The position numbers and the translations under genes are program-made. The notes beneath the pieces are model-generated. The model did no database searches, was not told the DNA's origin, and saw only the letters and a list, made by a program, of their open reading frames with translations. A stretch of 64,000 nucleotides of DNA, from contig JACPSL010000002.1 in assembly GCA_016193285.1 (NCBI GenBank), forward strand, positions 1-64,000, in the 5' to 3' direction. Every line of letters starts with the position of its first letter. The stretch's first letter is position 1. Positions 8,795-64,000 of this stretch are shown piece by piece. Origin of the DNA: Candidatus Melainabacteria bacterium (lineage in GTDB: Bacteria > Cyanobacteriota > Vampirovibrionia > 2-02-FULL-35-15).

Positions 8795-8868
8795 TCGGGG
8801 CGACACGATTTGAACGTGCGACCCTCTGCTCCCAAAGCAGATGCTCTACCAAGCTGAGCCACGCCCCG
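8795..8868 (-). tRNA. tRNA-Pro (anticodon UGG)
   Basis: Cloverleaf folded by hand. The acceptor is CGGGGCG/CGCCCCG with C1-G72, the D-stem GCTC/GAGC and the anticodon stem TCTGC/GCAGA. The anticodon loop is TTTGGGA (anticodon TGG). The T-arm is GCACG TTCAAAT CGTGT and the discriminator is A. CCA is not encoded. Confidence 0.85.
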
Positions 8869-30140: not shown

Positions 30141-30214
30141 CGGGCCGTGGCTCAGCTTGGTAGAGCACTTCCTTGGGGTGGAAGGGGTCGAGAGTTCAAA
30201 TCTCTCCGGTCCGA
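30141..30214 (+). tRNA. tRNA-Pro (anticodon GGG)
   Basis: Folded by hand. Acceptor CGGGCCG/CGGTCCG, D-stem GCTC/GAGC, anticodon stem CTTCC/GGAAG, anticodon loop TTGGGGT, T-arm GAGAG TTCAAAT CTCTC and discriminator A. Confidence 0.85.
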
Positions 30215-30292
30215 TTTTTGAAAATTAAAGCTCATCTCAAACAAATATTTGATAATCACGGTTCAAATCCCAGTGGATCTATTTAAAAATTA

Positions 30293-32387: not shown

Positions 32388-32492
32388 AAAGTAGTGAAAA
32401 ACACTAGGAGGATAGTTAAATCACGCAGCAGGAGCTAAGTCCGGTTATAAAAATATACCCTTTATACTCCATTAATTTAGTTCTCGCTTTGA
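32388..32492. repeat. ~105-bp repeat, copy A (≈85% identical to copy B at 33817..33912)
   Basis: Hand alignment of the shared blocks cactagg, tcacgcagcaggagc, ccattaatttagttctc and ctttg. Copy A ends 95 bp upstream of the YD-repeat gene start. Confidence 0.6.
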
Positions 32493-33816: not shown

Positions 33817-33912
33817 AGTGAAGAGCACTAGGGGATACATCACGCAGCAGGAGCCAAGCCTGGTATATAAATATGCTCTCTATATTCCATTAATTTAGTT
33901 CTCACTTTGTAC
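33817..33912. repeat. ~105-bp repeat, copy B (direct orientation relative to copy A)
   Basis: See copy A. It ends 94 bp upstream of the copy-3 ATPase start. Confidence 0.6.
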
Positions 33913-34556: not shown

Positions 34557-34590
34557 CTATCATTAAAACCTAATTAAATAAGGTATTTAG

Positions 34591-34631
34591 CCGCGTAGCG
34601 TAAACCACGGGAGCTTGCTCCCGAGTAGTTT
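34591..34631. repeat. GC-rich palindromic element, copy 1 (hairpin CGGGAGCTTGCTCCCG plus a second small GC hairpin)
   Basis: Its reverse complement AACTACTCGGGAGCAAGCTCCCG closely matches AACTACTCGGGGGCAAGCCCCCG at 63588..63612. Confidence 0.55.
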
Positions 34632-34645
34632 AGAAACGTAACGAA

Positions 34646-34662
34646 TGTAACCTTGGGTTACA
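34646..34662. promoter_or_regulatory. 17-bp palindrome TGTAACC-TTG-GGTTACA upstream of the mazE-like gene
   Basis: Seen directly. Candidate antitoxin operator. Confidence 0.25.
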
Positions 34663-37987: not shown

Positions 37988-38191
37988 TTATTGAGTATTT
38001 AGTTCAGTATTAACATTAGTAAAAATATTCGAGATTGAGCCTCTCATTGAGATTATTATTGATGCAACACCAGCAGCAACAATTCCTAAGAGCAGTGCAT
38101 ATTCTGTCATTGATGCACCTTCTTCATCACGAATAAATCTAATGACTATGTCCATAAAGTTATTCCCAATCCTAAGCAATTGATCTAGCAA
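37988..38191 (-). CDS. flp: Flp/Fap-family pilin, copy 1
   Basis: …DEEGASMTEYALLLGIVAAGV… is the Flp motif (EEGAT.IEYGLI). Confidence 0.75.
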   Translation of the reverse strand: MLDQLLRIGNNFMDIVIRFIRDEEGASMTEYALLLGIVAAGVASIIISMRGSISNIFTNVNTELNTQ

Positions 38192-38250: not shown

Positions 38251-38415
38251 TTACTTAGTAAGTTCAGTATTAGCATTTGTAAAAATGGTCTTGATGGAGC
38301 CTCTCATTGTGACTATTACTGATGCAACACCAACAGCAATAAGTCCTAAGAGCAGTGCATATTCTGCCATTGATGCACCTTCTTCATCACGAATGAATTT
38401 AATGATTGTATCCAT
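38251..38415 (-). CDS. flp: Flp/Fap-family pilin, copy 2 (54 aa, not in the ORF track)
   Basis: Hand translation gives MDTIIKFIRDEEGASMAEYALLLGLIAVGVASVIVTMRGSIKTIFTNANTELTK. A GGAGG RBS lies 7 nt upstream. Confidence 0.7.
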   Translation of the reverse strand: MDTIIKFIRDEEGASMAEYALLLGLIAVGVASVIVTMRGSIKTIFTNANTELTK

Positions 38416-40757: not shown

Positions 40758-40814
40758 GGGGAAAGAGACGGCGAGACGGCGAGACGGGGAACTGGGGAAA
40801 GGGGGAAAGAACAC
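40758..40814 (+). repeat. purine-rich tract with tandem GAGACGGC ×2.5 between wzc and the wza-like gene
   Basis: Seen directly (gggaaagagacggcgagacggcgagacggggaactggggaaagggggaaaga). It is unusual in AT-rich DNA. Confidence 0.4.
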
Positions 40815-63296: not shown

Positions 63297-63527
63297 TCAG
63301 GCAGGTTCTTCAATTTCAAAGATAGCCCATTGTGCTTCAACTTGAACCCAAAGATCTTCAGCCATTATTTTTTCTCTTAAATGAGGAATTGCATGGATGG
63401 CATTTTTTCCTAATGCTTTAATAGAAGCCTCAGATACTTTAACGACTTCATCTTCTTTATCTGATAAAGCAGTAATTAATCCTTTTATTATTTGTTCATC
63501 AAAAATTTTTGACTTGCCAAGAATCAA
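63297..63527 (-). CDS. HEAT/PBS-lyase-like repeat protein fragment (downstream piece)
   Basis: …LSDKEDEVVKVSEASIKALGKN… is a HEAT-like unit. Confidence 0.4.
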   Translation of the reverse strand: MILGKSKIFDEQIIKGLITALSDKEDEVVKVSEASIKALGKNAIHAIPHLREKIMAEDLWVQVEAQWAIFEIEEPA

Positions 63528-63585
63528 AGCTGCTTTACGACGTACTTCAGCCTTACTATTGGTAGTTAGAGCGGTTAATAATCTT

Positions 63586-63990
63586 TTAACTACTCGGGGG
63601 CAAGCCCCCGAGATCGCCGTTGGCGGTTTCGACTGTATTTGGACTTTTTCTTCTTAATCTTTCTAAAAGTGCAAACTCAGCAGCATGACTAGTTATTTTA
63701 TCTTCATTTCCTAATTGCTCAATTAAAAAATTATCTCCATTAAAAGATATTATTTTTTCAAGAGTACCTCCAAATCTAGAAGCATCGATTCTCTTACTTA
63801 GAACTTCTATAACATTGTTTGCCAATGAACTATCAATCCTTATAATTGCATAGGCAGCTTCTAGAGCAACATTGCAATCTTTATCGTTTAATGCATTTAC
63901 TAAATCATTTTTTGATTCTCCTATCTCATCAATATATCCTAAAGCAGAAGCTGACATGTAACGTACAGGTTGAACAGCACACTTAGTCAT
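63586..63990 (-). CDS. HEAT/PBS-lyase-like repeat protein (upstream piece; may extend beyond the window)
   Basis: LNDKDCNVALEAAYAIIRID repeats. The last ~20 codons are read through the GC-rich palindromic element. Confidence 0.45.
   Translation of the reverse strand: MTKCAVQPVRYMSASALGYIDEIGESKNDLVNALNDKDCNVALEAAYAIIRIDSSLANNVIEVLSKRIDASRFGGTLEKIISFNGDNFLIEQLGNEDKITSHAAEFALLERLRRKSPNTVETANGDLGGLPPSS
63588..63626. repeat. GC-rich palindromic element, copy 2 (hairpin CTCGGGGGCAAGCCCCCGAG + CGCCGTTGGCGG)
   Basis: Seen directly. Related to the element at 34591..34631 (inverted orientation). Confidence 0.55.
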
Positions 63991-64000
63991 TGCTGTTTGT

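Follow-up and report, generated by a model that had tools for sequence, protein, structure and literature searches.

What are the two short GC-rich palindromes that stand out from the AT-rich genome of a Melainabacteria bacterium, and has one of them split a gene? The question arises from a stretch of 64,000 nucleotides (nt; contig JACPSL010000002.1 of assembly GCA_016193285.1, Candidatus Melainabacteria bacterium, positions 1 to 64,000 of the forward strand), here called the window. An earlier note on this DNA had described the palindromes as a family resembling repetitive extragenic palindromes (REPs) or MITEs (miniature transposable elements with inverted repeats), with one copy apparently interrupting a HEAT-repeat gene. 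Our analysis indicates that both sites are very probably 43-nt non-autonomous derivatives of IS200/IS605 insertion sequences (ISs), of the "terminal-only" kind that resembles the palindrome-associated transposable elements (PATEs) of haloarchaea. The identification draws on homology to IS ends, on the element boundaries, on complementarity between guide and target tetranucleotides, and on the restoration of an open reading frame (ORF). The copies are REP-like in form but are not REPs of the RAYT-dependent type. They are referred to below as copy 1 (34591–34633, plus strand) and copy 2 (63585–63627, minus strand).

Two related hairpins in an AT-rich window

The window has a G+C content of about 32%, and all copy counts given here refer to its 64 kb. 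The 23-nt core pattern CGGGNGCTTGCNCCCGAGTAGTT occurs at 34608–34630 (plus strand) and 63588–63610 (minus strand), with no third match. None of 100 dinucleotide-preserving shuffles contained it, and the number expected by chance is 0. The two N positions of the core pair with each other in the stem and vary in a compensatory way, as A-T in copy 1 and as G-C in copy 2. Both hairpins are stable, copy 2 holds the most G+C-rich 24-mer of the window, and a scan for hairpins with a CTTG loop returned just these two as G+C-rich. The matches to the core and the shuffle test thus bear out the existence of two related palindromic copies. Relative to local transcription, they lie in opposite orientations.

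Several details of the earlier description required adjustment. The proposed 8-bp GC stem is perfect in copy 2, but in copy 1 the second position of the stem is an A.A mismatch (CACGGGAG/CTCCCGAG). The copies had been said to match almost base for base. This is true of the core, whereas the 15-nt region described as a second small hairpin is only loosely similar, and overall ungapped identity amounts to 28/43. Unit limits previously drawn at 34591..34631 and 63588..63626 become 34591–34633 and 63585–63627.

A scan of the whole window against Rfam 15 gave no match to either copy, and the only RNA genes detected were two tRNA-Pro genes. The element resembles neither of them, and a tRNA fragment or att site was therefore rejected as an identity. 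K-turn, loop-E, hammerhead and group II domain V motifs were judged by eye, and no consensus fitted. Exact-pattern scans of public collections yielded few matches, and those in genomes and metagenomes all came from other organisms.

A parent family of IS200-group insertion sequences

The identity of the hairpins becomes apparent from one of these metagenome matches. At locus L007, the 20-nt hairpin CTCGGGAGCTTGCTCCCGAG stands on either side of a 151-aa ORF, in direct orientation. This ORF matches the Pfam family Y1_Tnp (E 1.3e-40) and scores 149 bits on the NCBIfam model for IS200/IS605 transposases, NF033573 (cutoff 55), against 31.8 bits on the RAYT model (cutoff 80). The hairpin-flanked enzymes overall score 142–149 bits on NF033573 (cutoff 55) and 29–36 bits on the RAYT model NF047646 (cutoff 80). 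Related ISs were gathered by a search for TnpA homologues. DNA was fetched for six homologue clusters, which together with L007 make seven families. Each is 548–556 nt long and carries tnpA as its sole gene.

The ends of these families can be placed precisely. Left tips are fixed by at least eight different left flanks, all ending in TTAA. The sequence common to the copies starts directly after this tetranucleotide and reads C(C/G/A)GCG.AGCG.AAAT, then the hairpin, then (A/C/T)TGGATAGC. On the right, copies diverge directly after the hairpin and eight further bases, which follow the pattern T..TT(C/T/A)AT. At L015, a right tip runs straight into a left tip (TTCAT followed by CCGCGG). In several families, including L007 and L046, the hairpins of the left end (LE) and the right end (RE) are identical 20-mers.

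Removal in silico of everything between the two hairpins leaves an arm, a hairpin and a tail of 43–44 nt in each family. Copy 1 is identical to the virtual core-deleted IS of L007 at 37/43 positions. Copy 2 is identical to that of L046 at 34/43, with the same hairpin (CTCGGGGGCTTGCCCCCGAG) and a tail that reads TAGTTAAA versus TAGTTAAT. Both window elements are therefore homologous to the tips of IS200-group ISs, joined around a single hairpin.

Other derivatives were found alongside the full-length families. L011 contains a two-hairpin derivative of about 110 nt without a transposase, and L006 and L009 each hold a non-coding element of about 165 nt with the same right end. A TnpB/omega-RNA origin was considered for the latter two and rejected, as the upstream region has stops in all frames and no Pfam match. 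A viral match (L005) and two metagenome matches (L008, L010) lie in G+C-rich DNA without a proper hairpin or context and were treated as chance. The scan of genome contigs gave a single match, L001, in the Patescibacteria metagenome-assembled genome (MAG) contig JBDRIC010000141.1. Its left boundary disobeys the guide code described below at a 15–16-nt offset and does not fit a model with a 15-nt arm, and it was left unclassified.

Layout of the 43-nt units

Both units consist of a 15-nt left arm ending in a guide tetranucleotide, a 20-nt hairpin and an 8-nt right tail. Copy 1 reads CCGCGTAGCGTAAAC / CACGGGAGCTTGCTCCCGAG / TAGTTTAG on the plus strand. Its LE arm (34591–34605) aligns with the LE arms of the IS families, examples of which are CCGCGTAGCGAAAAT (L017) and CGCGTTAGCGTAAAT (L046). 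The last four arm bases, AAAC (34602–34605), form the guide 5' of the hairpin foot. The hairpin (34606–34625) has an 8-bp stem with the one A.A mismatch and a CTTG loop. The RE tail TAGTTTAG (34626–34633) has the same 8-nt length as in all seven IS families and ends in TTAG, the presumed right cleavage site. A further TTAG, in host DNA at 34587–34590, directly flanks the unit on the left, where it would be the target and left cleavage tetranucleotide; it pairs with AAAC.

Copy 2 reads ACCGCCAACGGCGAT / CTCGGGGGCTTGCCCCCGAG / TAGTTAAA on the minus strand. Its LE arm occupies 63613–63627, with the guide CGAT at 63613–63616. The hairpin (63593–63612) has a perfect 8-bp G+C stem and a CTTG loop, and the RE tail (63585–63592) contains a TAA stop at 63586–63588. 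The flanking host tetranucleotide is CGAA (63628–63631, minus strand; ..GTC GAA in the coding frame), which is the target predicted from CGAT.

Neither unit has terminal inverted repeats: copy 1 starts with CCGCG and ends with TTTAG, and copy 2 starts with ACCGC and ends with TTAAA. Target-site duplications are likewise lacking at both sites, where the flanks are TTTAG and AAACG for copy 1 and TCGAA and AGATT for copy 2. The TTAG on the flank of copy 1 and the TTAG at its end are read as left and right cleavage sites, and hence not as a duplication. MITEs of the type whose terminal inverted repeats are related to a DDE transposon were rejected on the same two grounds. Without the elements, the host junctions would read ATTTAG followed by AAACGT (copy 1) and GTCGAA followed by AGATTATT (copy 2). 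Copy 1 lies between genes, upstream of an operon for a ribbon-helix-helix (RHH) antitoxin and a MazF-like toxin and downstream of a C-terminal DUF4143 gene fragment. All three genes are on the minus strand.

A guide and cleavage-site code shared with the parent families

The boundaries above follow a code that has been worked out for IS608. Four bases 5' of the hairpin foot (g1–g4) recognise the cleavage tetranucleotide (c1–c4), with c1 pairing to g2, c2 to g1 and c4 to g4, and with c3 an unpaired A (PMC3201880). The left site, found 5' of the left hairpin, is also the integration target, and a few bases separate the right hairpin from the right site on its 3' side (PMC3201880). This rule holds at both ends in all seven of the IS families. 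The left end invariably combines the site TTAA with the guide AAAT. At the right end, site and guide covary in three states, TCAT/GAAA, TTAT/AAAA and TAAT/TAAA.

Both window units obey the code on their left side. In copy 1, the guide AAAC pairs with the flanking TTAG and with the TTAG at its own right end, and all three coded positions are Watson-Crick pairs in each case. In copy 2, the guide CGAT pairs with the flanking CGAA, again with three Watson-Crick pairs and at the same offset as in the IS families. Both guides differ from the AAAT of the families, and the left flanks have changed correspondingly. By our own estimate from base composition, left flanks that fit the three coded positions at both sites would arise by chance with a probability of roughly 10^-4. 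As a control, the same pairing test at the equivalent offset upstream of the RE hairpins of full-length ISs mostly fails.

A HEAT-repeat gene interrupted by copy 2

Copy 2 lies between two HEAT-repeat ORFs on the minus strand. The 5' part (63632–64000) runs past the end of the window. Its ORF is identical to the 268-aa NCBI protein HYY52_00400 of the Candidatus Melainabacteria bacterium MAG. The 3' part (63297–63584) is in the +1 frame relative to it. The upstream frame stays open until the TAA at 63586–63588, the downstream frame is open from about 63650, and the two therefore overlap across the whole element. Read-through of about 20 codons had been suggested for the upstream ORF. The correct number is 14 element-encoded residues (TANGDLGGLPPSS and part of a codon), ending at the TAA in the element's tail. 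Such a short peptide is an uninformative query, as an 8-mer such as LGGLPPSS is expected to have hundreds of chance matches in the protein database. A credible start codon is missing from the downstream ORF, whose first TTG would cut a HEAT repeat.

Excision in silico of the 43 nt at 63585–63627 fuses the two ORFs into a single frame (...RRKSPNTVE joined to RLLTALTTNSKAEVRRKAALILGKS...). The earlier note had anticipated that removal of about 40–75 bp would do so. Removal of 42 or 44 nt does not restore the frame. The restored protein has 350 aa, and HEAT_2 matches it with 47.2 bits over residues 222–304, crossing the junction at 254/255; the separate pieces reach 24.3 and 29.6 bits. Beyond the MAG's own protein, the protein database yielded one homologue (P0002, 29% identity), whose alignment covers both ORFs in a single high-scoring segment pair. 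The two ORFs are thus one HEAT-repeat gene interrupted by copy 2, because the 43-nt excision restores the frame, HEAT_2 spans the junction and the homologue aligns across it. On this point the earlier suspicion of a gene split by an insertion proved right. Neither half contains further stops or frameshifts, which suggests that the insertion is fairly recent. Function of the HEAT gene has presumably been lost.

Proposed origin and insertion

A plausible course of events can be outlined by analogy with IS200/IS605 biology. Deletion of everything between the two near-identical hairpins of an IS, tnpA included, would leave the left tip, one hairpin and the right tip. A Y1 HUH transposase TnpA, encoded elsewhere and supplied in trans, would bind the hairpin and handle the element as single-stranded DNA. 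The guide would pair with the tetranucleotide at which cleavage and integration occur, and entry 3' of this tetranucleotide would create no target duplication. By this route, copy 1 would have entered after TTAG, harmlessly between genes. Copy 2 would have integrated after CGAA inside the HEAT gene, adding a +1 frame shift and the TAA stop. The outcome there would be a 254-aa N-terminal piece with a 14-aa element tail and an untranslatable 3' remnant.

A number of observations weigh against this account of the two sites. Only two copies are visible in 64 kb, and tblastn found no tnpA in the window (best E 1.4). At the HEAT gene, removal of 40 nt restores the frame as well. The alignment to the homologue P0002 runs ungapped through the element-encoded residues, and this protein is too distant to place the junction. 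No empty-site HEAT allele was found in the protein database, which returned only the MAG's own protein and P0002. The right site of copy 2, TAAA, gives a wobble, a mismatch and a Watson-Crick pair with the guide CGAT, which is no match. Copy 2 may therefore no longer be excisable, its right site being unmatched to the guide that it retains. Finally, one TnpA dimer cannot assemble the canonical LE-RE synapse from a lone hairpin, which makes the mobility of the 43-nt unit itself uncertain.

Still, the unit may have been more than an inert remnant. We put forward, as a tentative and rather doubtful proposal, that the 43-nt one-hairpin unit is an active transposition substrate, among the smallest known, in which one guide serves both cleavage sites. 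Guide mutations from AAAT to AAAC and from AAAT to CGAT would then have retargeted it from TTAA to TTAG and CGAA, respectively. Copy 1 favours transposition of the unit as such, because its right end matches its single guide.

Alternative explanations

The most serious rival concerns how the copies originated rather than what they are. Full ISs of about 550 nt could have inserted at both sites, and each could have been reduced in place by recombination between its hairpins, so that the 43-nt units never moved. The identical 20-mer LE and RE hairpins of L007 and L046 would be ideal substrates for such deletions, and repeat-mediated core deletion has been documented in Haloquadratum (PMC3119063). 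Copy 2 is compatible with decay in place, because its TAAA does not fit the retained guide CGAT and resembles the TAAT of L046-type ISs, whose right guide TAAA would have been lost. Copy 1 fits less well. Its TTAG pairs perfectly with the sole guide AAAC, including an unusual G:C pair, as would be expected if the one-hairpin unit had itself been selected as a transposition substrate. Moreover, the seven full-length families use AAAT and TTAA, whereas both small units have altered guides and targets, and no full-length IS or tnpA remnant lies nearby. Decay in place is a possible history that deserves to be taken seriously, but not the probable one. A different identity is offered by canonical REP elements (REPINs) mobilised by RAYT, a domesticated relative of the IS200 TnpA. 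Short G+C-rich palindromes in an AT-rich genome would suit it, GTAG is present in the tail (GAGTAGTT), and REPs of Pseudomonas fluorescens carry the same hairpin cores, GGGGGCTTGCCCCC and GGGAGCTTGCTCCC (PMC2817692). Against this, no GT(A/G)G head stands 5' of the palindrome, where the tetranucleotides are instead AAAC and CGAT (AAAT, GAAA, AAAA and TAAA in relatives), and the 3' GTAG is missing from sister families (GAGTTCTT, GAGTTTTT). The associated enzymes are IS200 transposases by the bit scores given above, the hairpins flank tnpA in direct and not in inverted orientation, and the small units keep IS-specific left arms and right tails. A RAYT-dependent origin is very unlikely and largely refuted. 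What survives of the initial REP/MITE comparison is a small palindromic mobile family, although of neither the RAYT nor the terminal-inverted-repeat type.

It is still less credible that the hairpins are a host signal and not mobile DNA, whether by acting as an intrinsic terminator, by stabilising mRNA or by stimulating a programmed +1 frameshift that would join the two HEAT ORFs. The hairpins are stable and the HEAT frames overlap across the element with a +1 difference, both of which would suit such a role. Yet no Rfam family matches, no terminator-like site was called around copy 1, and no T-run follows the stem of either copy on either strand. Copy 2 lies inside coding sequence, which argues against a terminator, and no slippery or +1 shift motif was identified. 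The opposite orientations of the copies relative to local transcription and the homology to transposon tips speak against a host function too. In addition, the element-encoded peptide falls outside the HEAT periodicity, and excision yields a canonical repeat. An artefact, either a chimeric join or a homopolymer error in an intact gene with an in-frame 42-nt insert, is equally hard to sustain. Runs of G5 and C5 are present, and Logan contigs of three runs all end at 63611, inside the hairpin. However, Logan assemblies of several runs match copy 2 at 100% identity up to that base, and the assemblies of three independent runs do not differ from the MAG at any base of its tail or of the two homopolymer runs. 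Copy 1 is matched in full at 100% identity by independent Logan assemblies of several runs (contigs L032–L034), and four run assemblies agree over its whole length. The length of 43 nt is also that of copy 1 and of virtual core-deleted ISs. The reading of both sites as terminal-only IS200/IS605 derivatives is accordingly retained.

Comparison with known systems

The closest counterparts are the terminal-only PATEs of Haloquadratum walsbyi, among them the forms of HqIRS46 and ISHwa23 that have lost their core and measure 52 bp (Dyall-Smith et al. 2011, PMC3119063). They are produced when deletion between its two similar palindromes removes the core of an IS605-type element, and they are suspected to be mobile (PMC3119063). 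As in the window, these are transposase-free IS200/IS605-type derivatives with fused termini around one near-terminal palindrome, without terminal inverted repeats or target duplication, and with a targeting sequence of 4–5 nt 5' of the element. The window elements differ in being 43 nt rather than 52 bp long and in residing in a bacterium (a Melainabacteria MAG) rather than a haloarchaeon. Their parents are tnpA-only ISs of the IS200 group of about 550 nt, not IS1341/tnpB-type elements. Complementarity between guide and target is directly readable here, and it is not the same as in the parent family.

The recovered IS families share with the "peel-and-paste" elements IS608 and ISDra2 the subterminal hairpins at both ends in direct orientation, the pairing code of the 4-nt guide and the insertion 3' of the left tetranucleotide. 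The distance from the RE hairpin to the right cleavage site 3' of it is short and fixed, at 10 nt in IS608 and 8 nt here. Left and right tetranucleotides are TTAC/TCAA in IS608 and TTAA/TCAT in the parent families, and TTAG or CGAA accompany the small units. Unlike IS608 and ISDra2, the window elements lack tnpA and tnpB and have one hairpin and one guide for both cleavage sites.

REPs and REPINs are likewise G+C-rich palindromes, of 20–40 nt, and a Y1 HUH enzyme akin to the IS200 TnpA is believed to process them (PMC2817692, PMC3733652). Single-hairpin units occur among them, some inside genes (Nunvar et al. 2010, PMC2817692; Di Nocera et al. 2013, PMC3733652), and some GCTTGC-looped cores of Pseudomonas REPs are identical to the window hairpins (PMC2817692). 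The elements described here differ by lacking the 5' GT(A/G)G head, by their relation to IS200 TnpA and not RAYT, by the direct orientation of the hairpins, and by IS-type arms and tails. In P. fluorescens SBW25, the REPs GTGGGAGGGGGCTTGCCCCCGAT and GTGGCGAGGGAGCTTGCTCCCGCT have the same hairpin cores as copy 2 and copy 1, respectively (PMC2817692, Table 1). Such shared cores could reflect common ancestry of REPs and IS200, or convergence on a hairpin favoured by Y1 transposases.

Rickettsia palindromic elements (RPEs; described by Ogata et al. in 2000) are reportedly about 100–150 bp long and inserted in frame, leaving the host protein intact. Like copy 2, they are selfish palindromes of small size that reside within an ORF in an AT-rich bacterial genome. 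The window element differs in that it is 43 nt long, shifts the frame and truncates the protein.

Neighbouring features and side observations

A perfect 17-bp palindrome, TGTAACC-TTG-GGTTACA, lies at 34646–34662, 12 nt from copy 1, and is unique in the window. The earlier note had placed it beside the first copy. It is real but not part of the family, since none of the related elements has it. It may serve the DUF4143 fragment as a terminator or the RHH antitoxin as an operator, or it may mark a spot where strains differ. The Logan contigs of three runs all have 34657, a base inside this palindrome, as their first position. Contigs of different runs (L002–L004 and L032–L034) thereby share identical end bases, 63611 and 34657, the former being one nt before the 3' end of the copy-2 hairpin. 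Shared ends of this kind could result from other copies with common k-mers, from strain variants or from coverage dips. As a sign of repetition they were set aside as ambiguous, given that the contigs break at the unrelated 17-bp palindrome yet cross copy 1.

The tRNA-Pro genes of the window (8795–8868, minus strand; 30141–30214, plus strand) have the anticodons TGG and GGG. They form a 79-nt inverted repeat of 85% complementarity with its arms 21 kb apart. A T-arm-like remnant, GGTTCAAATCCCAGTGG, lies just downstream of the second gene at 30255–30280. It is followed by an island-like stretch with a large ORF of unknown function, DUF4143 ATPases (one of them truncated) and the RHH/MazF pair, which may be an element integrated at tRNA-Pro. 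A 51-nt repeat of 84% identity occurs just downstream of the DUF4143 ATPase and mazF-like genes, at 32441–32491 and 33859–33909. On the minus strand, both copies start ATGGA(G/A)TAT and may be the starts of small paralogous ORFs.

Further along, a 162-nt direct repeat of 87% identity (37988–38191 and 38251–38415, minus strand) represents a tandem pair of Flp-type pilin paralogues that share the motif ...EEGASM(T/A)EYALLLG... and adjoin TadE/TadG-like genes. At 40758–40798, a G+C-rich segment with three tandem copies of the 7-nt repeat GAGACGG (GGGGAAAGAGACGGCGAGACGGCGAGACGGGGAACTGGGGA) marks the junction between a 709-aa ORF resembling chain-length determinants and tyrosine kinases and the next ORF.

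Some loci recovered in the searches are also worth recording. At positions 1212–1275 of L015, two IS copies of about 553 nt stand head to tail (TTCTTCAT followed directly by CCGCGGAGCG) with no TTAA between them. This junction is as expected for a circular transposition intermediate, or for insertion beside the TCAT of a resident copy. In the first 150 nt of L001, the same hairpin and TAGTTCAT come last in a cluster at a gene end, after three or more further G+C-rich hairpins whose loops read GAAG or TTGC, an arrangement that recalls BIMEs (mosaic elements interspersed in bacterial genomes). In the first 131 nt of L047, an IS copy of the P0018 family lies directly downstream of a group II intron reverse-transcriptase gene (RVT_1, GIIM), so that two mobile elements adjoin there.

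Implications for the genome and for IS200/IS605 derivatives

In annotation terms, HYY52_00400 and the ORF that follows it, which is unannotated, are best treated as halves of one HEAT gene presumably inactivated by a transposon remnant of 43 nt, and the GC-rich "tail" of HYY52_00400 as element-encoded. The locus offers a clean case, in a bacterium, of a known type of selfish DNA, the terminal-only IS200/IS605 derivative. Its boundaries are predictable to the base from the IS608 code, and the restoration of the ORF provides an independent check on them. The tnpA-only families of about 550 nt recovered here also document natural covariation of guide and cleavage site in three states.

The wider meaning depends on mobility. 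If the 43-nt unit does not move, it is ordinary selfish DNA. If it does, it would inform both the origin of REP-like singlets from IS ends and the minimum size of a TnpA substrate. Should the proposed retargeting hold true, these elements would be a natural counterpart of engineered IS608 retargeting and a possible bridge from IS200 ends to REP singlets.

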